DNA of 64,000 nucleotides. Origin: Candidatus Lloydbacteria bacterium RIFCSPHIGHO2_02_FULL_50_18 (GTDB lineage Bacteria > Patescibacteriota > Minisyncoccia > Phycocordibacterales > UBA6899). Positions 3,096 to 58,375 of this stretch are shown piece by piece (within the stretch, counting starts at the first letter, position 1; every line of letters begins with the position of its first letter). The stretch lies in the NCBI GenBank assembly GCA_001821395.1, contig MHLM01000012.1, positions 1-64,000 of the forward strand, in the 5' to 3' direction. Below the pieces are notes generated by a model. The model had not been told where the DNA came from and did not search any database. It worked only from the letters and a program-made list of their open reading frames with translations. Position numbers and translations under genes: made by a program.

Positions 3096-4895
3096 TTATC
3101 CTTTAGCCTCCGCAAGCTCCTTTTTTGCCTTCGCTATTGCCAGCATTTGTGCCGGATCGGAGCTGACGATCTGGTCTTCGGTGTAAGAAGCGTAGACCTT
3201 GATAGCGACGTGCTTTAATCCTGCGAAGAAAAGTCCTTCCCCTACCCCTGACTCGAGTAAGAGATACTTTTCTTCATCAGTTAAATGGAACGTCTGCTGT
3301 ACAAGATCGATCGTCGTCGGTGATTGCTTGAGGAGTATTTGGATCGATGAGTTGGTGAGGATCGGAAGCCCATACGGAGAACGAAGGAAATCGTTGACGT
3401 CCTGGGTGATGGTCGCAATACCGAGGTAGTATTTACGACCGCGTTTCGCAAGACCAAAAAGGAATGATGCCGTATCCTCGGATTTCATCATCCACCACGC
3501 TTCATCAACAACGAGGAGGCGTTTGCGTATCTCCTTTCGTATCGCTGTCCAAATATGGTGCGTGACGATATAGACGGCGACTGGCTTCAACTCGTCCTCC
3601 ATGTTGCGGACAGAGAACACGGTGAAGCGCTTTGTGATATCCACATTCGTTGGCTGGTTCAAGAATCCCGACCAGGTTCCTCTCGTGTATTTCTCAAGGC
3701 GCTGAAGGAGCGACTCCGTTCCGTTCATTCCGGAGAGGACGATCTCGAAGTCCGACAGTAGTGGCGGCTCGATATCAGCAAAATTAATATCAGGCGTGAT
3801 ATCCTTGAGTGCGTATGTTTCTGAAATTGCACGGTCAATGATCGAGTCTTCCTCCGGAGTGAGTCCTCCGAGCATAATGCGGAACAGTCCGACGAGGAAG
3901 ATGATATTCGAGCGCAGCACGTCCGCACCGGACTCATCTTCGCGTGGGGCAGGAAGGTCGAACGGATTGATGTGATGTTCTGATGTCAGTGAGATATTAA
4001 AGTAGCGCCCTCCCGTCGCTTCCGCAAGAAATCCGTACTCTTGCTCAGGGTCGATAACGATCACATCCGCATCGAACATGAGTGTTCGGATGATCTCGAG
4101 TTTTGTTGAATAGGATTTTCCCGAACCTGAGACGGCAAATGTGACCGAATTGTAGTTCGGCATTGAGAATCGATCAAAAAGTACAAGCGAAGCATTGTGC
4201 CTGTTGATCCCCCAAAGAATTCCCTTGTCCGAGGTAAGGTCGAAGGAAACGAACGGGAATATCGACGAAAGTGGCGCAGAGTTCATCTTGTAGTGGACCT
4301 CAAGCTCGTCAGTCATGAGCGGGAGAACGCTGCGGTATGCTTGCTCTTGCTGGAAGATCGCCGGTTTTAAATATACGAGTTTCGCATCAAGGATCGACTT
4401 GAGCTCACTCTCTACTTTGTCGAGCTCGTTTCGATCGTTGGCATAGATCGTGATATAGACACCAACATCAAAAAGGCGCTCTTCCGCTTGTTGGAGCTTG
4501 TCACGCAGTCCCTCGAGGTCTTGGTATGCGATATCAAGCACCGGGTCACGGACAAACCCCTTGCGCTCACGTTCGTTGATCTGGCTCTGTACCTCAGCGA
4601 CCTTTTTCTGGAACGAACGGAGCGCGAGTTCTGTTTGCACGGGATGGATCATGATTGCGACATCGAACACTTTGTCGAGATTGATGATAGGAGTGAACCA
4701 ATCCTGCGACAAGAACCGAGGATAGGAGATCACGAACAACGTGCGTGCGATCTTGTCGCCGATAAAGATATCTTTTGGAGTGATGTCTACGGCGGCGGGA
4801 GCAAGAATATCCTTCATGTCGAGGTTTGTTGACTCGAATATATCAGAAGGAAGCACCCCGGTATTTAAATTTTCAAATCCTTTTTTTTCTGCCAT
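3096..4895 (-). CDS. virB4: VirB4/TrbE/CagE-family type IV secretion ATPase (ATPase domain portion)
   Basis: Walker A FAVSGSGKSYST and Walker B LLVVDEAWWMM, both typical of the VirB4 family. The N-terminal region TLFVISYPRFLSQDWF resembles the VirB4 central conserved block. Confidence 0.8.
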   Translation of the reverse strand: MAEKKGFENLNTGVLPSDIFESTNLDMKDILAPAAVDITPKDIFIGDKIARTLFVISYPRFLSQDWFTPIINLDKVFDVAIMIHPVQTELALRSFQKKVAEVQSQINERERKGFVRDPVLDIAYQDLEGLRDKLQQAEERLFDVGVYITIYANDRNELDKVESELKSILDAKLVYLKPAIFQQEQAYRSVLPLMTDELEVHYKMNSAPLSSIFPFVSFDLTSDKGILWGINRHNASLVLFDRFSMPNYNSVTFAVSGSGKSYSTKLEIIRTLMFDADVIVIDPEQEYGFLAEATGGRYFNISLTSEHHINPFDLPAPREDESGADVLRSNIIFLVGLFRIMLGGLTPEEDSIIDRAISETYALKDITPDINFADIEPPLLSDFEIVLSGMNGTESLLQRLEKYTRGTWSGFLNQPTNVDITKRFTVFSVRNMEDELKPVAVYIVTHHIWTAIRKEIRKRLLVVDEAWWMMKSEDTASFLFGLAKRGRKYYLGIATITQDVNDFLRSPYGLPILTNSSIQILLKQSPTTIDLVQQTFHLTDEEKYLLLESGVGEGLFFAGLKHVAIKVYASYTEDQIVSSDPAQMLAIAKAKKELAEAKG

Positions 4896-27006: not shown

Positions 27007-27948
27007 ATGGACTTACATGAGTGGAAAAAACATTTTCTTGAATACACGGAAATAGAAAAAGGAAGAAGTATTCATACGGTAGAAAATTATGATCGCTATT
27101 TGACGCGTTTTCTTGAATATTCGAAGCTGACGCAGCCGTCGGATATTACCTATGACGTCGTCCGTGAATACCGTCTTTGGCTCAATAGGCAGCTCGCAAC
27201 GGAGTCGCGTCGGGGGGTTCCGGAAACTACATTAAAAAAGCGGACACAGAACTATTATCTGATCGCTCTTCGCGCATTCCTGAAATATTTGATGCGTCAG
27301 GGTGCTGAAAATATCATGTCGCCGGAGAAGATCGAGCTCGCAAAAGTTTCAGAGCGTGAATTAGACCTGATATCCACACAGGATCTTGATCGTCTGCTCA
27401 TGGCCCCACGGGGTGATACGCTTGTTGCGCTTCGCGATACAGCGATACTGGAATTATTATTCTCCACCGGTCTGCGTGTATCTGAATTGTGCGGGCTGCC
27501 ACGCGACTTGGATCTTTCCCGCGATGAGTTTTCCGTGCGGGGAAAGGGTGAAAAGGTGCGTGTCGTATTTTTGTCCGAGACGGCGAAAGCAGCACTGAAG
27601 GCTTATCTTCACAGAAGGACAGATGTTGATGACGCCCTTTTTGTGCAGGTGGGCCGCGGCGGAGAACGATCCCAAATCAAAAAAGAAGGTTCGTTAAGGC
27701 TTACTTCCCGTTCCGTGGAACGCCTTGTGAAACACTATGCAATAAAGTCAGGAATCTCAAAAAAGGTCACCCCTCATGTTATTCGTCACAGTTTTGCCAC
27801 TGACCTATTGGAAAATGGGGCCGACCTTCGTTCCGTGCAGGCGTTATTGGGGCATGCAAATATTGCCACCACGCAGATATACACACATGTGACTGATAGC
27901 AAACTTCGTGAAGTGCATAAGCTGTTTCACGATAAGCGCAAAAGGTGA
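27007..27948 (+). CDS. tyrosine site-specific recombinase, XerC/XerD family
   Basis: C-terminal catalytic block HVIRHSFATDLLENGADLRSVQALLGHANIATTQIYTHV (R..H..R..Y). The N-terminal SAM-like domain has the conserved W/Y residues. Confidence 0.9.
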   Translation: MDLHEWKKHFLEYTEIEKGRSIHTVENYDRYLTRFLEYSKLTQPSDITYDVVREYRLWLNRQLATESRRGVPETTLKKRTQNYYLIALRAFLKYLMRQGAENIMSPEKIELAKVSERELDLISTQDLDRLLMAPRGDTLVALRDTAILELLFSTGLRVSELCGLPRDLDLSRDEFSVRGKGEKVRVVFLSETAKAALKAYLHRRTDVDDALFVQVGRGGERSQIKKEGSLRLTSRSVERLVKHYAIKSGISKKVTPHVIRHSFATDLLENGADLRSVQALLGHANIATTQIYTHVTDSKLREVHKLFHDKRKR

Positions 27949-29851: not shown

Positions 29852-31339
29852 CTACTTCACTCCATATTTCTTGCGTATGGCACTCACCTCACCTTTTTCC
29901 TCCGCTTCTTTTTTCTCCTTACCCGCTTCTCCGAGTTGCTCAAGCTCCCTTCTCGGAAGCGTGTAGAGTGCTATCGCTCGTTGTTTAAGATAGTCAGCCG
30001 TGTTCTTTTCGGGATTATCAAGCACTTCATTGAAGAGTGCATGAAGTATCCATCCTATTTCCCGCCCCGGCTTCAAGTTGGCTGCGCTCATTATTCCCGC
30101 ACCATCGATTTTCAGCATACCCACCGATACCGGTGCACGCATTGCTTCCTCGATCATTGAATGATATTTGCGTAGTCGATAGGGGGTTTCTTTCGGACGC
30201 CCCATTCCGATACGGTCGCAGGCACGCACGTTCATGAGATCCCACACAAGTTCGGGTCCCACATGCGCAACGATGCGTCGTACTGCAGAGAGCGTAATCT
30301 TCTCAATATCGGAAAAAAATAAATGATAACGCACTAGCGTCGAGACGTCATGAATGAATTGCTTCGGAAAACGCAAGCGTTCAAGAATTTTTGCCGCCAT
30401 GCGCCCTCCGACGACATCGTGCCCGTAGAACGTCCAATCTTTCTTTTCGTCCGACCACTTACGCGTGTGGGGCTTCCCAACATCATGGAGTAACGCCGCG
30501 ATGCGCACGTGGAGCGGCCATCCCCTTTCTTTTGCATGCTGCAGAGCGCGCAGGTTATGTTCCCACACTTCATAGATGTGGTCGCCATTTTGCTCGCATC
30601 CAATGCCTGCCTCGAGTTCCGGTGCGATATATTTGAGTACCCCCGTTCTATTGAGCAGAACGATACCCTCCATGGGGCGATCCGACATGATGATCTTGAT
30701 GAACTCGTCACGAATGCGTTCCCCCGCGATGTGTTCAAGTCGGTGCGTAAATTTTACGACCGCATCCATGGTCTCTTTCTCGATGGCAAAGCCGAGCTCT
30801 GCGCCAAAGCGCACCGCGCGCAGTATGCGCAACGCGTCCTCGTGAAAACGATCTTCCGGCGCACCTACGGTTTTTATCAAATGGCGTTCGATGTCTTCTT
30901 CCCCTCCGTAGGGATCGATGATCATTCCTTGTGAAACATTGTACGCGATAGCATTCATGGTGAAATCGCGACGCTGTAGATCATCAGTAAGACTGCCGGA
31001 GAATGCAATCTCATCAGGATGGCGAAAGTTTGAATAGGCGCTTTCTTTGCGATATGGGGTCACTTCGACGATGCGCATGCTTCCCCGCTCCGCATCGTCT
31101 TCTGCGATGTCTTCATTGACGACGCCCACTGTTCCGTAATCATTCTCATAAAATGTTTTTGGGAAAAGTGCGATGATCTCTTCCGGCTTCGCGTTCGTTG
31201 TGACATCCCAATCCTTTGGCTTGACCCCTCGGTAAAGATCACGAACGCAACCACCTACGAGATATGCTTCATAGCCGGCTGCTTCGAGCGTTTTATTGAC
31301 CTGTGATATTTCGGGTGGAATAGTAAAGTGTTTCTGCAT
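29852..31339 (-). CDS. cca: CCA-adding tRNA nucleotidyltransferase with HD domain
   Basis: LVGGCVRDLYRGVKPKDWDVTT polymerase-beta-like head. HD motif LLHDVGKP. 495 aa. Confidence 0.85.
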   Translation of the reverse strand: MQKHFTIPPEISQVNKTLEAAGYEAYLVGGCVRDLYRGVKPKDWDVTTNAKPEEIIALFPKTFYENDYGTVGVVNEDIAEDDAERGSMRIVEVTPYRKESAYSNFRHPDEIAFSGSLTDDLQRRDFTMNAIAYNVSQGMIIDPYGGEEDIERHLIKTVGAPEDRFHEDALRILRAVRFGAELGFAIEKETMDAVVKFTHRLEHIAGERIRDEFIKIIMSDRPMEGIVLLNRTGVLKYIAPELEAGIGCEQNGDHIYEVWEHNLRALQHAKERGWPLHVRIAALLHDVGKPHTRKWSDEKKDWTFYGHDVVGGRMAAKILERLRFPKQFIHDVSTLVRYHLFFSDIEKITLSAVRRIVAHVGPELVWDLMNVRACDRIGMGRPKETPYRLRKYHSMIEEAMRAPVSVGMLKIDGAGIMSAANLKPGREIGWILHALFNEVLDNPEKNTADYLKQRAIALYTLPRRELEQLGEAGKEKKEAEEKGEVSAIRKKYGVK

Positions 31340-31389: not shown

Positions 31390-31503
31390 GAAATATTCGC
31401 CAGGAATTTCGACCCCTACTGGGTCAGTACCTCATTCCCATTTTTCAGATTAAGAAATCTTCAAAAACATGGTAATGGGCTTCGAATCCTGTCGAAGCTG
31501 AAG
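31390..31503 (-). repeat. tRNA-3'-associated structured element (Arg copy) plus degenerate duplicate of the tRNA-Arg 3' end
   Basis: Read on the minus strand: GGATTCGAAGCCC...TTTTTGAAGATTTCTTAATCTGAAAAATGGGAATGAGGTACTGACCCAGTAGGGGTCGAAATTCCTGGCG. It is homologous to the elements at 32048-32150 and 35191-35302. Confidence 0.5.
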
Positions 31504-31543
31504 CAGTTCAGCTTCTCGGGAGCACAACTCGCTTCGCTCTTTG

Positions 31544-31615
31544 TGCTCCCGCCAGGATTCGAACCTGGAATAACTGCTTCGAAGGCAGTCGTGATATCCA
31601 TTTCACTACGAGAGC
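31544..31615 (-). tRNA. tRNA-Arg (anticodon TCG)
   Basis: Manual cloverleaf: acceptor GCTCTCG/CGGGAGC, D-stem GTGA/TCAC, anticodon stem ACTGC/GCAGT with loop CTTCGAA, T-arm CCAGG-TTCGAAT-CCTGG. Confidence 0.85.
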
Positions 31616-31731: not shown

Positions 31732-31805
31732 GCGGGTATGGTTTAGTGGTAGAATACGTCCTTGCCAAGGATGAGACGGGAGTTCGATTCTCCCTACCCG
31801 CACCA
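31732..31805 (+). tRNA. tRNA-Gly (anticodon GCC), CCA encoded
   Basis: Acceptor GCGGGTA/TACCCGC, anticodon loop TTGCCAA, T-arm GGGAG-TTCGATT-CTCCC, 3' ACCA. Confidence 0.9.
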
Positions 31806-31828: not shown

Positions 31829-31888
31829 CAAATCGTGAAATAGCAAAAATAACGAGATATCTCGTTATTTTTGCTATTTCACGATTTG
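31829..31888. repeat. 60-bp perfect palindrome immediately downstream of tRNA-Gly
   Basis: CAAATCGTGAAATAGCAAAAATAACGAGAT|ATCTCGTTATTTTTGCTATTTCACGATTTG has exact dyad symmetry. Confidence 0.7.
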
Positions 31889-32047
31889 TAACGATTTCCA
31901 TTTCCGAAAATCGCCGTGCGAGGAAAACTCTGCTTACCCGCATTAATTTTGCACTGTGCATGGTTTAAGGAAAGAAATCGTTCCGCCTCACTCAACTCTG
32001 TTGTTTCATATGCAAGCCTGTTTGGAAGTGTTTTGCCCCACTTCCGT

Positions 32048-32150
32048 GGGAGAATCGAAGCCTTTTCCCTTATTTTTGAAGGATTCATATCCTGAAAAAA
32101 TGGGAAATGGGCACTGAAACTGTAAGTTTCGATTCTCCCTACCCGCACTA
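32048..32150 (+). repeat. tRNA-3'-associated structured element (Gly copy) followed by a duplicate of the tRNA-Gly 3' end (att-like)
   Basis: GGGAGAATCGAAGCC...TTTTTGAAGGATTCATATCCTGAAAAAATGGGAAATGGGCACTGAAACTGTAAG, then TTTCGATTCTCCCTACCCGCACTA (compare the tRNA 3' end TTCGATTCTCCCTACCCGCACCA). Confidence 0.55.
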
Positions 32151-32310
32151 GGAACGAGCGTGATAAAAGGCCCTTCATAGGGCTTTTTATCACCGAGTGA
32201 CGACGTGCGGGAGGCTTTGCCTACGCGCACTAGGATGAACAACGAGCGTGATAAAAGGCCCTTCATAGGGCTTTTTATCACCGAGTGACGACGTGCGGGA
32301 GGCTTTGCCT
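32144..32310. repeat. tandem direct repeat (2 units of about 85 bp), each unit carrying a bidirectional terminator-like hairpin
   Basis: The unit CGCACTAGGA(TGAAC)AACGAGCGTGATAAAAGGCCCTTCATAGGGCTTTTTATCACCGAGTGACGACGTGCGGGAGGCTTTGCCTAC occurs twice. The hairpin is AAAAGGCCC-TTCAT-AGGGCTTTTT. Confidence 0.6.
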
Positions 32311-32496
32311 ACTCAGCAGTCATTTTTGATCAACTTGAGCTTTTGGTGTGCTGCTCACAAAGAATATACGTTTTTTATGAAATACAGGTAAATGCAAAGC
32401 ATTTTCTCCTTAAAAAATTAAACGTCGGCAATAAAATATTTTTTCTGAAATTCGTCAATAATTCCTAAAATATGTGATTTTAAGCATTTTTTGAAC

Positions 32497-32544: not shown

Positions 32545-32706
32545 TGGGTATAAAGGACATTATAATGACTTTTATTATGTCCTTTAGGAATTTGATTGAG
32601 GGCGGCGTTGTGCCGTTTCACGGAAAGCAAAGAATTAATGTTACTACGTAACAAATTAAGCAACAGTACAATATATCTGACTTGAATAACGTAAATTGGG
32701 TTTCAC

Positions 32707-33126
32707 ATGAAACTGAATAGTGAGAAACTTGAAAAAATGGGACAAATTACTGAAAAACAGCAAATAGGGAGGACCGGAGAGGATATTGCATGCTTGTTTC
32801 TCGTGAAACGTGGCTTTCAAATCGTTGAGCGTAATTTTTGGAAGAAGGTCGGTGAAATAGATATTATTTGCACAAAAGAGGAAAAATTTTACTTTGTTGA
32901 AGTAAAAACGATCGTAAAAAGAGGTGTTTCACGTGAAATGAGCGATAATTATCGTCCAGAAGATAATCTGCATGCTCAAAAGATCGTTCGACTTGGAAGA
33001 GCAATTGATATTTACCTTGAAGAGCAAAATATTGATGGTGATTGGGAAATACTTGGGGTCATGATAATTATTGACCCAAAGACTAAGATTGCAAAAGTGT
33101 CGCTTTTGGAAAATTTCGCCTGGTAG
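32707..33126 (+). CDS. YraN/UPF0102-family endonuclease
   Basis: GEDIACLFLVKRGFQIVERNFW...GEIDIICTKEEKFYFVEVKT matches the YraN signature. Confidence 0.7.
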   Translation: MKLNSEKLEKMGQITEKQQIGRTGEDIACLFLVKRGFQIVERNFWKKVGEIDIICTKEEKFYFVEVKTIVKRGVSREMSDNYRPEDNLHAQKIVRLGRAIDIYLEEQNIDGDWEILGVMIIIDPKTKIAKVSLLENFAW

Positions 33127-33403
33127 TCTTTTCACGTGAAACATAATGAACGAGAAGGATGACGGACCCAGGTCATAAGGTCGTTTTGTCTATTATGGGT
33201 GTTTCACGTGAAATCCTGCCTCAAATCTGTCTTGATCATCGCTTTGTTTTTGCGGTTTTATGTTTAGTGAAAGATAACTACAAAGTATAAATGAGCATAG
33301 CGCTGCTTGGGGATTACTCTTGAATTTTTTATGAGTATAATATGGAAAAGACAATCTTTATGAACAGGTTGCGTAGTTTAAAATTCTATGATATAATATT
33401 TCC

Positions 33404-34835: not shown

Positions 34836-34946
34836 GGTGTTGATCAGCGTCTGGTGAAAAACATCCCATATTCGATGGGGTGTTTTTATTATCGCAAACG
34901 AGATAGTTGCCCTAATTTGAATTTTAAGCTACTCTTGCGACACGAC

Positions 34947-34983
34947 CGAAGTATATCGGGGCGTGGTGTAATGGCTAACATGT
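34947..34983 (+). pseudogene. tRNA-Pro 5'-half pseudo-copy (degenerate duplicate upstream of the intact gene)
   Basis: CGGGGCGTGGTGTAATGGCTAACATGTCTGGTTTT is near-identical to the 5' half of tRNA-Pro at 35047. The anticodon loop is disrupted (TTTTCAGGATAGAGA) and the T-arm is missing. Confidence 0.5.
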
Positions 34984-35046
34984 CTGGTTTTCAGGATAGA
35001 GACCAGATGACAAGAGACAGCGTGACGTAGTGAGGAAGAAGTATAT

Positions 35047-35119
35047 CGGGGCGTGGTGTAACGGCTAACATGTCTGGTTTGGGACCAGATGACTCCGGGT
35101 TCGAATCCCGGCGCCCCGA
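35047..35119 (+). tRNA. tRNA-Pro (anticodon TGG)
   Basis: Acceptor CGGGGCG/CGCCCCG, anticodon stem TCTGG/CCAGA with loop TTTGGGA, T-arm CCGGG-TTCGAAT-CCCGG. Confidence 0.9.
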
Positions 35120-35163
35120 CTAAATAAAGAAAAGACCTTCAAGGAGGTCTTTTCTTTATTTAG
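35120..35163 (+). terminator. long AT-rich hairpin immediately 3' of tRNA-Pro
   Basis: CTAAATAAAGAAAAGACC-loop-GGTCTTTTCTTTATTTAG perfect 18-bp inverted repeat. Confidence 0.45.
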
Positions 35164-35190
35164 TCGAAGGCGCGAGGAGCACAGCTCCGA

Positions 35191-35302
35191 GAGGGATTCG
35201 AAGCCCTTCTCCCATATTTATGAAGGATTCTTATCCTGAGTAAATGGGAAAGGGGTACTGACGCAGTAGGCGTCGAAATTCCCGGCGCCCCGACTAAATA
35301 AA
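35191..35302 (+). repeat. tRNA-3'-associated structured element (Pro copy) followed by an exact duplicate of the tRNA-Pro 3' end plus 11 nt (att-like)
   Basis: GAGGGATTCGAAGCCCTTCTCCCATATTTATGAAGGATTCTTATCCTGAGTAAATGGGAAAGGGGTACTGACGCAGTAGGCG, then TCGAAATTCCCGGCGCCCCGACTAAATAAA. Confidence 0.55.
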
Positions 35303-35476
35303 AAAACTGCCTTTTGGCGGTTTTTTTATTAAATCTTCAAGATTGAAAATCACCTGCGGCGGTAAGGGTAGATCTCAGTTTTCAATGACTGAGAAGGCGT
35401 CATCGATAAAAAGTGTTTCACGTGGAACACCTGCGAGCTCGCAATGAATAACTTCTCACGATAGAATGAGTTTCTT

Positions 35477-37566: not shown

Positions 37567-39250
37567 TATAATCAACCATATGCCGTTGAACATGAATAAG
37601 TATAAGGATCTCTTCTGCGCGGAAGCAGAGGAGCAGCTTGCAATACTCTCTCGTTTATTGCTTGTGCTTGAGAAATCAACAAACCACATGGAATACCATG
37701 AGGAGTTAATGCGCAGCGCACACACCATCAAGGGTGCCGCTGCGACAATGGGGTATGCTTCAATGGCAGAACTTGCTCATGCGGTTGAAGATATTTTTCA
37801 TGCAGCCGAGCGGGGTGCCCTTGTGGTTGATACACGGATCATTACACTATTGCTCTCAGCGATCGACCTCATGACGCATTCACTCGCCTCGATCAAGAGT
37901 AGTGACGTTGAACTTCCCAGTAAGGAAGTTGTTGATAAATTGAAAAAAATTCTTGAAGAAAATGCCGGTGTACAGACCGTTGTTCCGCAAGAAAAAACCG
38001 GTACTGATGTTCAGCAATTGCATATCGTCACTCCGGATACCATCAAGGTTAGTGTCGAAAAACTCGATACATTAATGGGGCTATTTGAGGAAATGTTGAT
38101 GCTCAGACTGAAGGCAAATTCAATGATCGAGCCTGCTGTGGAATTTGTTCGGACGACGACTGACCCTGTATTGAAGCAGCAATTATTCTTCATTGCCGAG
38201 CTCGAGGCATTGTTTGCAGAACTTGCGCGGCTCATGACTGAGCATCAAGACGCTCTTCTTGCTATTCGCCTCGTTCCCCTTGAACAGATCTTCGGCCAGT
38301 TCCCTCGTATGGTGAGGGATCTGTCGGTGCGAGAAGAAAAAGCGATCGAATTTTTTGTTGAAGGTGGAGATATCGCCTTAGACCGTACCGTGATCGAGGG
38401 CCTTGGCGGTGCACTAGCGCATCTTCTTCGCAATGCGGTCGACCACGGGATCGTTTCACGTGGAACAATATCTCTTTCGGCGGTAAGGGAAAAGGGACGC
38501 GTACGGATCTTTGTGGAGGATTCGGGCGCCGGGATCGATTATGGGCGGGTCAAAGAGGTGGCAACGGCTCAAGGGGTAGGCACGAGTGAAGAGATCGCAC
38601 TTATGGGAAACGAACAGCTCGCAGAATTATTGTTTCATCAAAATATGTCGACCAACAAAGTGGTGACGGATATTTCGGGAAGAGGAGTTGGTCTTGCTGC
38701 GGTGCGCGGGTTTGCTGAGGATGTCGGAGGACGCGTTGAAGTCATTTCTCCCATTCCGGAAATAGGGAAGGGGACCCGCTTTGTTCTTGATCTTCCGATC
38801 TCTCTTGCAACAGTGCGCGTGCTCGTCGTGCAAGCACGAGGGTACACATTTGCGATACCTTTCGATCATGTCATTAAAACACTTCACTTTGAAACGCGGG
38901 AGGTCGGTGACGCGGCGCATCAGGAAACACTTTTTCTCGACGGGACATTGTTGCCGCTGATGCATCTCGATAAAATTCTCAAACTATCATACGGTTCCGC
39001 TCCATCTCCGGAACATTCTCGAACCGCGGTGTTGATCCGAACGGGAGAGAAAACATTTCTTCTCGAAGTAGATGCGTGCACGGGTGAACAAGACCTATTG
39101 ATCAAATCGCTTCCTCCGGTTCTCCGTAATAATAAGGGATTTTCAGGCTCAGCGCTTCTCCCGGACGGACGAACAATATTATTACTCGATGGCCATGGTT
39201 TACTCATACAAGCAATAGACGATATACTGAACACCCAATCATTATCTTAA
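37559..39250 (+). CDS. cheA: chemotaxis histidine kinase CheA
   Basis: HPt motif HTIKGAAATMGY, HATPase_c HLLRNAVDHGI ... GRGVGLAAV, and a C-terminal CheW-like domain. Confidence 0.85.
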   Translation: MRDIINHMPLNMNKYKDLFCAEAEEQLAILSRLLLVLEKSTNHMEYHEELMRSAHTIKGAAATMGYASMAELAHAVEDIFHAAERGALVVDTRIITLLLSAIDLMTHSLASIKSSDVELPSKEVVDKLKKILEENAGVQTVVPQEKTGTDVQQLHIVTPDTIKVSVEKLDTLMGLFEEMLMLRLKANSMIEPAVEFVRTTTDPVLKQQLFFIAELEALFAELARLMTEHQDALLAIRLVPLEQIFGQFPRMVRDLSVREEKAIEFFVEGGDIALDRTVIEGLGGALAHLLRNAVDHGIVSRGTISLSAVREKGRVRIFVEDSGAGIDYGRVKEVATAQGVGTSEEIALMGNEQLAELLFHQNMSTNKVVTDISGRGVGLAAVRGFAEDVGGRVEVISPIPEIGKGTRFVLDLPISLATVRVLVVQARGYTFAIPFDHVIKTLHFETREVGDAAHQETLFLDGTLLPLMHLDKILKLSYGSAPSPEHSRTAVLIRTGEKTFLLEVDACTGEQDLLIKSLPPVLRNNKGFSGSALLPDGRTILLLDGHGLLIQAIDDILNTQSLS

Positions 39251-40454: not shown

Positions 40455-40994
40455 TTGCTATACACTGGGCAAATGCTCATCCGTCGTAACCCACTAACCC
40501 TTTTGTCCTTTGTGCTGTTCGTTATTGCTCTCTACTCTGCGGGCATGCTTTCTTCTTCAGCTCGTGTTACACATGAAACAACGATCCCCGAAAACCTTTT
40601 TTCTGTGAAACAGGGTGTTACTCAGGATGGAACGGTGTCTATTTCCGAGGTTTCACGGGTTCCCGCCGTCCCGATCTTTCTAAAGAGTGCGAATCATCCA
40701 CGAACACTGCGAGCATTTGTCGGACCAAGTCAGGGTGACAAAGCATCACTTTTTATAGAGTCGGTACTACCGCGTGGCTATTTTGTTATTTCAGGAGGTT
40801 ATACTGTTTCACAAGATTTCCCGACACTTTTATGGAATAACGCAGTGACACTTCAGTTTTACGGAACAAAAGAGAACAACGAGCAGCTCTACCGTATTCG
40901 TCTTAACGTGCATGCACTTACGGTTGATGCTTTGCCCGTTGATCCGACAGCAACCAGTAGCGATCCGACGGGGTATCGTGTGACGCCGGATTAA
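40455..40994 (+). CDS. hypothetical membrane-anchored protein
   Basis: 179 aa with N-terminal TM LTLLSFVLFVIALYSAGML. Confidence 0.5.
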   Translation: MLYTGQMLIRRNPLTLLSFVLFVIALYSAGMLSSSARVTHETTIPENLFSVKQGVTQDGTVSISEVSRVPAVPIFLKSANHPRTLRAFVGPSQGDKASLFIESVLPRGYFVISGGYTVSQDFPTLLWNNAVTLQFYGTKENNEQLYRIRLNVHALTVDALPVDPTATSSDPTGYRVTPD

Positions 40995-43088: not shown

Positions 43089-43159
43089 GCGGGATTAGTT
43101 TAGTGGCAAAATAGGAGTTTTCCAAACTCTTGTCGCCGGTTCGATTCCGGCATCCCGCA
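43089..43159 (+). tRNA. tRNA-Gly (anticodon TCC)
   Basis: Acceptor GCGGGAT/ATCCCGC, anticodon stem GGAGT/ACTCT with loop TTTCCAA, T-arm GCCGG-TTCGATT-CCGGC. Confidence 0.75.
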
Positions 43160-43434
43160 CAGAAATGAGATTCAAAGAGCGCATTACTGCGCTCTTTGTA
43201 TTTTTGTGAACCACAGCGATGTTTCGCCAGCGGGTGAAACTGCAGGGTGGGGCCACGAATACTTACATTTTTTGTGCGAGTAGCTATAAAAAATCTAGTG
43301 ATTCGTGATCTGGGATACGAAACACTACCGATAGATGGTTGTTTTGTATGTGCGCGGAAGGCTGCCAGAATGACTTGGTCAGGGCTAAATCGGAAGGTTC
43401 TTCGACAACGACCGACTAATTTTTTCTTGTAACA

Positions 43435-58069: not shown

Positions 58070-58375
58070 ATGAAATTTCACATGAAACTTATTCGTGACA
58101 AGATACCCGGCATCGCTCATGCAAAGGGTGAACAGCTGCAGTGCCATAAGGCGGATCCCGCAGAATATCGCTATCATCTTCGAGAAAAGATTCTTGAAGA
58201 GGTTCATGAATTTCGTGAGTCTGGAGAGGCAGAGGAATTAGCTGATATTCTGGAGGTTGTACGGGCGATAGCAAATGAGCGCGGTTTATCGATGCGCAAT
58301 CTTTATCTCCTTCGTGATAAAAAGCGCCGAGCACGGGGAGGATTTGACGGACGGATCATTTGGCAAAATGAGTAG
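58070..58375 (+). CDS. MazG-like/PRA-PH-superfamily nucleotide pyrophosphohydrolase
   Basis: MKLIRDKIP...EELADILEVVRAIANERGLS...RGGFDGRI. 101 aa. Confidence 0.55.
   Translation: MKFHMKLIRDKIPGIAHAKGEQLQCHKADPAEYRYHLREKILEEVHEFRESGEAEELADILEVVRAIANERGLSMRNLYLLRDKKRRARGGFDGRIIWQNE

Follow-up and report, generated by a model that had tools for sequence, protein, structure and literature searches.

A protein-less, hairpin-rich element behind tRNA genes of Patescibacteria, most likely a tiny mobile element that leaves its target gene intact

What has happened at a tRNA gene that is flanked on both sides by pieces of itself? The question is raised by the tRNA-Pro(UGG) locus of Candidatus Lloydbacteria bacterium RIFCSPHIGHO2_02_FULL_50_18, a member of the Patescibacteriota, which lies in a stretch of 64,000 nucleotides (contig MHLM01000012.1, positions 1 to 64,000 of the forward strand), referred to here as the window. 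A first-pass annotation of this DNA had taken a copy of the 5' half of the gene and a copy of its 3' end together as signs of repeated site-specific recombination at one hotspot. The analysis presented here treats the two copies apart. The 3' copy belongs to what is apparently an undescribed family of elements, about 200 bases long, protein-less, rich in hairpins and situated 3' of many Patescibacteria tRNA genes. Most probably these are tiny mobile elements, able to insert into a tRNA gene and leave it unbroken.

The intact tRNA-Pro gene (35047-35119/35120, + strand) was called by ARAGORN and by Rfam (65.4 bits). The hairpin behind it had been credited with an 18-bp stem; it exists, but its stem is a perfect 22 bp (35117-35138 and 35145-35166) around a 6-nt loop. 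The left arm of this terminator-like palindrome (35117-35166, +) begins within the tRNA gene, in the acceptor 3' strand, at CGA. Its GACCT/AGGTC stem is followed by a T-rich run, and homologous terminators are found in L037 and L038 (loci of relatives are given by such numbers throughout). The right arm passes into a decayed segment named A5 (35163-35176). On the same strand follow the small hairpin hp1 (35176-35188; GGAGC ACA GCTCC), defined by alignment, fold and the covariation of helix 1; an inverted copy of the T-loop and T-stem 3' strand (35193-35202), where GGGATTCGAA reads as the reverse complement of TTCGAATCCC; the long core hairpin of type I (35204-35255; helices 4-5 and fold), with a tandem G.A internal loop and a UCUU apical loop; and the junction TACTGA, the hairpin hp2 (GACGC AGTAG GCGTC, with an invariant GTA in the loop) and GAAAT (35256-35279; helix 6 and alignment). 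Hairpin hp1 splits the inverted copy into an acceptor-derived and a T-stem-derived part. The unit ends in a direct repeat found by repeat search (35280-35302, +), which runs from T60 to the discriminator and on through 9 nt of trailer. An exact duplication of 30 nt had been claimed at this place. The 30-mer does sit at 35273-35302, but the exact repeat comprises 23 nt only, TCCCGGCGCCCCGACTAAATAAA (35106-35128 = 35280-35302; 14 nt belong to the tRNA and 9 nt to its flank), and the T-loop portion of the 30-mer differs by an indel (TCGAAATTCCC vs TTCGAATCCC). Beyond the exact repeat a weaker similarity (51 nt, 76%) spans both terminators, the second of which is a CTGCC/GGCGG hairpin at 35296-35330 (+). 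The whole core of the Pro copy (35174-35287, +) scores 118.3 bits (E = 1.7e-27) with a covariance model of the family.

The same order is found across copies. Read along the tRNA strand, the tRNA is followed by a palindrome that usually holds a hairpin resembling an intrinsic terminator, and whose left arm starts 3-12 nt inside the acceptor 3' strand. Then come A5, which is the complement of the acceptor 3' strand; hp1, with a loop that is often AACUGCUU; the T-stem 3' strand and T-loop as their exact reverse complement; a conserved G/A; the long bulged hairpin with its tandem G.A internal loop; the junction GTACTG(A); the 5-bp hairpin hp2 with the invariant GTA in its loop; and finally a direct copy of tRNA sequence that begins at T55 and ends with the discriminator, often with a 2-nt AT insertion at T-loop positions 58-60. 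The inverted copy holds for T-loops that are not palindromic as well (Leu TTCAAGT gives CTTGAA). The direct repeat is 7-31 nt long across copies; repeats of 16-31 nt start in the T-loop, and several of them enter the trailer (23 nt in Pro, 31 nt in L026). The conserved structured core measures about 85 nt. As a single strand the whole unit is predicted to fold into a rod that looks like an acceptor/T minihelix with a three-way junction as its cap; the predicted fold of the Pro copy has -59.2 kcal/mol and z = -4.46.

How widespread is the element? It had been stated that tRNA-Pro carries the third copy of a conserved element, and this proved to be right: a pattern drawn from the three copies of the window matches three times against 0 expected and has no other match in the window, and the covariance model gives 118, 116 and 104 bits. 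Among public genomes all matches of the pattern are Patescibacteria (Lloydbacteria, Paceibacterota, UBA6023 and Parcubacteria GW2011_GWA2_47_7), and metagenome contigs are matched too. A covariance model, R1, was built from 18 copies and gave 42 hits at E <= 1 in the window and related contigs. In non-duplicate loci 20 of the 31 tRNAs are occupied, that is, an R1 match lies at most 450 nt downstream on the tRNA strand; in the window R1 matches lie behind three of the four tRNAs. Wherever the upstream sequence suffices, the copies are always on the strand of the tRNA. At least 13 isoacceptors are occupied, including Pro, Gly, Arg, Leu, Ser, Ala, Val, Trp, Lys and Cys.

With Rfam 15 the tRNAs alone reach threshold in the window, and the isolated element at E <= 10 gave hairpin-type chance hits only; at permissive thresholds no family matched the window or three isolated copies. 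No description of the element was found by a full-text search of the literature. A likeness to the hammerhead ribozyme (CUGA ... GAAA) was rejected because the GAAA is derived from the T-loop and varies with the tRNA; the required GA is missing, and Rfam agrees. Other known self-cleaving ribozymes (twister, pistol, hatchet, HDV-like) gave no Rfam match, and neither did tmRNA, Y RNA or T-box families. A role as 5' regulator of the downstream gene was also discarded, the downstream genes being unrelated and on either strand. When open reading frames (ORFs) from all loci were clustered, no protein recurred as a neighbour except CheY, which does so because of synteny.

The two other copies of the window lie behind tRNA-Gly(GCC) (31732-31805, +) and tRNA-Arg(UCG) (31543-31615, -), and the fourth tRNA gene is tRNA-Gly(UCC) (43089-43160, +), all three being ARAGORN/Rfam calls. 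The CCA end is encoded by tRNA-Gly(GCC) only, not by tRNA-Pro or the others. The Gly copy (+, 116.5 bits) consists of a core at 32022-32143 and a direct repeat (32128-32148) of the 3' end of tRNA-Gly(GCC). Between this copy and its tRNA lies an arm of 215 nt, which holds a 60-nt perfect palindrome (31829-31888) and, at 31981-32003, the trailer copied in inverted orientation; the palindrome is AT-rich and terminator-like and has homologues in L007 and L011. The Arg copy (31398-31552, -, 103.6 bits) has its core at 31398-31517 and a palindrome of 11 bp at 31518-31552, which overlaps the 3' end of tRNA-Arg(UCG), and its direct repeat is shortened to TCCTGGCG. A tandem duplication was also seen 3' of the Gly element: 32153-32224 and 32241-32312 are identical over 72 nt at a spacing of 88 nt, and in each unit there is a terminator hairpin as well as another incomplete copy of the 3' end of tRNA-Gly (CCTACGCGCACTAGGA). 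The gene of a CCA-adding tRNA nucleotidyltransferase (29855-31339, -) starts 59 nt downstream of the Arg copy on the same strand, and in L007 its orthologue lies about 560 nt downstream of tRNA-Arg, again on the same strand.

Is the core merely carried along, or is its structure maintained? In an alignment of 19 copies, 90.5% of cells are paired, and 25 of 43 pairs have changed on both sides, against 16.8 +/- 1.9 in shuffles. None of 500 shuffles reached the observed values on all five measures, and slid controls remained at or below 51% paired. Helices in the tRNA-derived flanks covary automatically and were not counted, so that the independent evidence comes from hp1, the long hairpin and hp2. 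Helices 4 and 5 of the long hairpin are 94.7% and 98.2% paired, with compensatory changes, and in helix 6 (hp2) both sides have changed in four of five pairs. Divergent copies keep the same fold with other sequence or length, and at least three subtypes of the long hairpin occur. The core structure is under selection. The tRNA-sense strand folds better in 18 of the 19 copies, and intact copies contain 12 G.U as compared to 5 A.C pairs. Covariation and this strand bias indicate that a single-stranded form of the sense strand, RNA or DNA, is what is selected.

The same findings speak for another explanation, which we consider less likely but which is the main rival and a serious one, namely that the element is a structured non-coding RNA retained by the host, a tRNA mimic that is co-transcribed with the tRNA or read through from it. 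The neighbouring tRNA would have its acceptor/T minihelix copied in the closing helix of this RNA, on which RNase P, RNase Z or the CCA-adding enzyme may act. The three-way junction would have an activity or serve to bind a protein, and copies would be gained by local duplication and lost by deletion. The covariation of all three hairpins, conserved nucleotides in junction and loops beside stems of variable length (as is typical of RNA families), the better folding of the sense strand, the excess of G.U pairs and the z score of the Pro copy are all in its favour. On the other hand, about 10 of 16 copies carry, as read from the sequence, a terminator-like hairpin with a T-run between tRNA and core, and upstream of the core there is no conserved promoter. 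Several good copies (Arg and Pro of the window, L030 and L036) have no acceptor-like stem or a decayed one, and the direct repeat enters the trailer, which is not tRNA.

The long palindromes are a further difficulty for an RNA. Uninterrupted Watson-Crick stems of 15-29 bp without a single G.T pair are present in 9 of the 22 copies examined, where they extend from within the acceptor 3' strand through the terminator, and perfect palindromes of this kind fit identity in duplex DNA. Perfect palindromes would also suit an origin by template switching during replication, at the terminator hairpin and the T-loop TTCGAA, with the core passively co-amplified and neither mobile nor functional. The layout of a segment, its reverse complement and the segment again, with centres at the terminator loop and the hairpin-rich core, does resemble fold-back products. 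Yet such an origin is improbable, as the same hp1 and core stand behind unrelated tRNAs in many genomes, hp1 has a fixed place in the inverted copy, selection maintains the structure of the core, and tRNAs with non-palindromic T-loops are occupied too. A simple copy-back origin of the inverted repeat is likewise weakened by the presence of hp1 inside it and by the trailer palindrome of L001, which is imperfect. Origin of the direct repeat by tRNA-primed reverse transcription was rejected because the repeats carry genomic trailer and not CCA.

Comparison with relatives gives states with and without the element. In the window tRNA-Gly(GCC) has no directly adjoining element, whereas in L007 and L011 the site is filled; the filled sites are bounded exactly by the 21-nt repeat, and a trailer of the window type follows the distal repeat. 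The Gly copy of the window corresponds to a second, more distal copy, which is degenerate in L011. The tRNA-Arg(UCG) of L007 does not differ from that of the window (CCA-adding enzymes 80% identical), yet of the two loci only that of the window has the element. At tRNA-Pro all relatives with a CheW identity of 43-75% carry an element at the orthologous site, in differing subtypes, with internal insertions and with tandem partners in differing orders. Three subtypes of the long hairpin occur at this one site, which does not favour a retained RNA; neither does the closest relative, L037 (CheW 87% identical), in which tRNA-Pro and the proximal GACCT terminator are kept and the element is absent, nor its absence from many tRNAs. 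The state of L037 indicates a deletion. The distal terminator of the window (35296-35330) is homologous to the tRNA-proximal terminator of L046, and is probably the original tRNA-Pro terminator, displaced by insertion. By this homology the proximal 3' end, terminator, inverted copy and core of the window look later-arrived.

In arrays the tRNA-proximal copy is the best preserved one in all four comparable cases (L011, 101 vs 69 bits; L001, 120 vs 70; L043 and L039); that the proximal copy alone of two stays intact would also suit an RNA. The order of subtypes differs between arrays, type I then II in L043 and type II then I in L010; the L010 array was left unranked, R1 being a type-I-based model. 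A motif, CACCTGCGGCGGTAAGGG / CACC(C/T)GCGGCGGTAGCCGA, was also noted downstream of the Pro element (35346-35368) and at 38467-38489 in the window, at about 55-95 in L010 and about 2120-2160 in L041; in relatives it lies inside nested element copies. In L041 a module of about 75 nt with a motif of this type is flanked by a duplication of GATTCGAA, which suggests that the module was inserted into a T-loop-like site of an existing element.

We propose that the 3' part of the tRNA-Pro locus is an ORF-less, non-autonomous element of about 170-350 bp that integrates at the T-loop of a tRNA gene and restores its 3' end, and we put the probability of this at about one half. The reading rests on the linkage to tRNA genes, the tRNA-derived flanks, the insertion and absence states, the displaced trailers and terminators, the arrays and the selection on the core, all of which are observed. 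The integrated unit would consist of a replacement for the 3' end of the tRNA, which starts at the T-loop and extends to the discriminator or, in some cases, into the trailer; a terminator hairpin; the reverse complement of the replacement 3' end, interrupted by hp1; the conserved three-way-junction core with long hairpin, junction GTAC and hp2 with its GTA loop; and the displaced original 3' end, which is left as the direct repeat. Integration could proceed by site-specific, or homology-driven, recombination within the segment from T-loop to 3' end, so that the tRNA stays intact. Thanks to the inverted copy, a single-stranded form may be able to fold up as a double-stranded imitation of the target, and an enzyme supplied in trans, e.g. 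a Xer-type tyrosine recombinase, of which the window encodes one, would act on the folded element.

A number of observations weigh against mobility. None of the copies is linked to a recombinase, transposase or reverse transcriptase. Neither excised forms nor circle junctions were seen, and the assemblies that other samples gave of the same strain all carried the element, with no variation in copy number seen. Searches of viral contigs, phage records and plasmids gave no match and hence no known vehicle. Copies within a genome have diverged (about 80% among the three copies of the window), with no recent burst. The core is 96% identical between the window and L039/L044, whose CheW proteins are 54-60% identical and whose flanks are unalignable, and in L039 the direct repeat has decayed and the core has not. 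A core kept beside decayed repeat and flanks looks like selection in place and favours a host function, and these data, together with the nearly universal occupancy of tRNA-Pro across deep divergence, are again in line with a retained RNA. That a single core family has stems matched to more than 13 tRNAs is unexplained by a model of a mobile element.

It is a tentative possibility that the element is programmed by nucleic acid: a mimic of the tRNA minihelix, in which a single fold unites the two strands of the target from T-loop to acceptor, would determine the target, and the three-way-junction core would recruit a recombinase or nuclease in trans. It would then be an ORF-less colonist of tRNA genes that can be retargeted through structure and sequence. 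As an equally tentative variant of this idea, the copies could be shadow RNAs, one RNA paired with each tRNA and having a role in Patescibacteria tRNA metabolism.

The repeats of tRNA 3' ends are a classic att signature, and a tyrosine recombinase gene is present in the window (27007-27948, +). Could the copies then be scars of integrase-bearing islands or prophages decaying at tRNAs, with the conserved element as a shared attP arm? This is very improbable. More than 36 copies at no fewer than 13 tRNA types in many genomes are all ORF-less and 170-350 bp long, there is no integrase fragment nearby, covariation of hairpins is not expected of protein-binding arms, and phages, plasmids and viruses gave no matches. 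The recombinase is XerC/D-like and the only one in the window; its score is just above the NCBIfam cut-off for XerA/integron integrases, and the tRNA-Arg/Gly cluster is 3.4 kb away.

A chemosensory operon directly downstream of the locus had been reported and was confirmed with Pfam (CheW, CheY, CheB, CheA and CheC/X). It had further been suggested that this cluster could be part of an inserted island, which did not hold. The order UPF0102 - orf94 - orf~365 - tRNA-Pro - cheW - cheY - cheB - cheA is kept in all relatives retrieved, including those with CheW just 43-60% identical, and the conserved position after tRNA-Pro means that the operon is syntenic and not an insert. The CheW of the window is 100% identical to a protein from a RIFCSPHIGHO2_01_FULL MAG. 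Of the idea of repeated recombination at tRNA-Pro a part remains: the 3' duplication marks recombination or insertion, and the site was reused, as tandem and nested copies in relatives tell. The 5' copy is no att scar, and the ORF-less insert of about 170-350 bp is not the scar of a conventional island or prophage.

A collapsed-repeat artefact had also been considered for this region. Four independent assemblies from other samples match the window base for base over the stretch covered, apart from a single SNP in one of them, and two of the four span the whole intergenic region; the same architecture recurs in NCBI, JGI, ENA and Logan records. Some short contigs do break at the repeats, the palindromes of the element break assemblies, and a fifth assembly of the same strain, L048, has a gap of 31 nt inside tRNA-Pro (about 35062-35092 of the window), which is probably a mis-assembly caused by the 5' repeat. 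The chance that the locus as a whole is an artefact of assembly is close to nil. It was also seen that in L002 (about 2680-2800) and L005 (about 1290-1300) runs of N cover the part of the element copies with the terminator and inverted copy; L044, an unmasked record of the L002 locus, has a perfect 29-bp palindrome at the masked place.

What, then, is the copy on the 5' side? A direct repeat of 45 bp, with its two units 100 bp apart, had been described. The repeat is present, but it measures 43 nt with one mismatch (98%), its units are 90 nt apart at shifted coordinates (34948-34990 and 35038-35080), and it includes 9 nt of the tRNA-Pro leader. The description of the upstream unit as having a disrupted anticodon loop and no T arm was accurate. 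The loop is 8 nt longer, with TTTTCAGGATAGAGA in place of TTTGGGA; beyond it the copy resumes with the 3' strand of the anticodon stem and TGAC up to 35011, and the T arm and acceptor 3' strand are absent. ARAGORN called the intact gene and not the upstream copy, and neither ARAGORN nor Rfam called the latter as a tRNA or an intron-containing tRNA, 35047-35120 being the only call at the locus. The leader pseudo-copy (34948-35011, +) covers tRNA-Pro positions -9 to about +47 and stands 3' of a promoter-like TTGCCC-17 nt-TACTCT (34907-34935, +), whose hexamers and spacing are kept in L039 and L041 and which could act as a promoter. Its core, GGCTAACATGTCTGG-TTTCAGGATAGAGA-CCAGATGA, is a mimic of the D/anticodon arm with an enlarged loop, is predicted to fold into a 10-bp hairpin with a 7-nt loop, and is kept in L039, L041 and L045; the mimic of the window is longer by 26 nt, taking in the tRNA 5' end.

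Leader copies are restricted to tRNA-Pro (UGG in the window, GGG in L036) and occur at none of about 29 others among the 31 tRNAs examined. With its place in the pre-tRNA leader, behind a conserved promoter-like motif, and its conserved core hairpin, the 5' copy was rejected as an att remnant and reads instead as a conserved leader hairpin (34973-35011) specific to tRNA-Pro and separate from the 3' element. The 8-nt expansion of its loop is not an intron. The paper that comes closest in the literature, on group I introns at position 35/36 of Patescibacterial tRNAs (doi 10.1101/2025.07.03.662931), deals with another subject than the element. Eight nucleotides of the leader loop (TCAGGATA) are complementary to the core of the element (TATCCTGA), but as L036 does not reproduce this, it was taken as chance.

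Several other features were noted in the neighbourhood. A second conserved motif of two hairpins, GTGAACCACAGCGATGTTTC ... GAAACCGCGAGGTGGGGTCGCGAGTACTTAG ... TAGTGACTCGTGACC, lies at 43198-43335 (+) in the window and at 1779-1905 in L001, 5445-5582 (-) in L007 and 8375-8490 in L026. It stands just past the terminators behind tRNA-Gly(UCC), tRNA-Arg and tRNA-Leu and is fused into an element copy in L026; it has some compensatory pairs and no Rfam match. The copy at 43198-43335 was tried as a divergent copy of the element, but R1 does not recognise it. A palindromic motif, GTTTCACGTGRAAC, has 9 sites in the window (18 strand matches vs 0.9 expected): five at 32700-33214 and one each at 35415-35428, 38453-38466, 40566-40579 and 58075-58088. 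A similar palindrome was found by eye upstream of cheW in L037, L038, L039 and L041, and the motif is probably the operator of a transcription factor. At 3099-4895 (-) a TraG/VirB4-like protein with a P-loop domain is encoded amid large ORFs without Pfam match, and this region may be a secretion or conjugation-like locus.

Genomes of Patescibacteria are very small, yet one-third to two-thirds of the sampled tRNA genes carry about 200 bp of element. Such high occupancy suggests that the element is either a successful parasite of tRNA genes or something that the cell needs. If mobile, a gene-less element would have a safe way of targeting essential genes, in that it rebuilds the 3' end and brings a terminator; if it acts as RNA, it would be a large new family of tRNA mimics. 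On the practical side, its repeats of tRNA 3' ends will be misread as att sites by tools that search for islands, and the covariance model R1 could be used to annotate the element across genomes of the candidate phyla radiation (CPR).

How does the element compare with known systems? With the tRNA-like domain of transfer-messenger RNA (tmRNA), the Y RNA YrlA and viral tRNA-like structures it shares a coaxial helix of acceptor/T type, the rest being replaced by modules. Unlike these RNAs, it has a three-way junction in place of the T-loop, its stems match the adjacent tRNA, the acceptor stem is often absent, many paralogous copies occur per genome, and Rfam gives no match.

Miniature inverted-repeat transposable elements (MITEs), repetitive extragenic palindromes and their mosaics (REP/BIME) and the palindrome-associated transposable elements (PATEs) derived from IS200/IS605 are likewise short, ORF-less, multi-copy, hairpin-forming and presumably mobilised in trans. 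In the element, by contrast, the inverted repeat is target sequence, the location is strictly at tRNA 3' ends, and the copies in a genome are old and divergent. Where a MITE has terminal inverted repeats of its own and a fixed target duplication, the element has tRNA copies and a direct repeat of 7-31 nt; and where a PATE has subterminal hairpins, inserts 3' of a motif of 4-5 nt and makes no target duplication, the element has hairpins too, but its target is duplicated both directly and in inverted form and the tRNA is left unsplit. Casposons, as generally known, are multi-kilobase elements with a casposase and a polymerase, terminal inverted repeats and a fixed duplication of about 14-15 bp, and depend on Cas1; the likeness lies in the use of a tRNA 3' end as target and in its duplication.

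The integrative elements and islands at tRNA 3' ends, and their derivatives without an integrase, the cis-mobilisable elements (CIMEs), come nearer. They insert in the same way at the 3' end, bring along the sequence that regenerates it and leave the old end as a direct repeat, and in both the repeat may pass the end of the gene and copies may accumulate in tandem at one tRNA. As in integrative elements, a direct repeat bounds the insert (23 nt in Pro, 21 nt in Gly), and empty and filled sites differ exactly there; the inserts of 170-350 bp contain no ORF, and no integrase gene or remnant lies inside them. Unlike islands and CIMEs, the element measures about 200 bp and is gene-less, uses one core at more than 13 tRNAs, carries the target once more in inverted form, and has a core of hairpins that covary.

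The integron attC site and the attP(+) site of CTX phage are folded single strands whose arms mimic a duplex recombination site. The element resembles them in its imperfect palindrome with extra-helical features on one arm (here hp1 and the frequent AT bulge), in a variable terminal structure between the arms, in the conservation of structure over stem sequence and in an enzyme that is not self-encoded. It differs in having no R/L boxes (RYYYAAC/GTTRRRY), no dif-like site and no IntI or cassette array; its stems are copies of the tRNA 3' end, its terminal structure is the conserved part, and its single-stranded intermediate is presumed. In place of attC core sites the arms are tRNA-derived (GGGATTCGAAG ... 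TCGAAATTCCC), with G and not C after GAA, and in place of cassette arrays next to intI and attI the copies stand singly or in twos and threes behind tRNAs. The comparison thus suggests a likeness of mechanism only and not membership; if the element is mobile, it may extend the folded single-strand recombination sites known from attC and CTX phage to tRNA targets.

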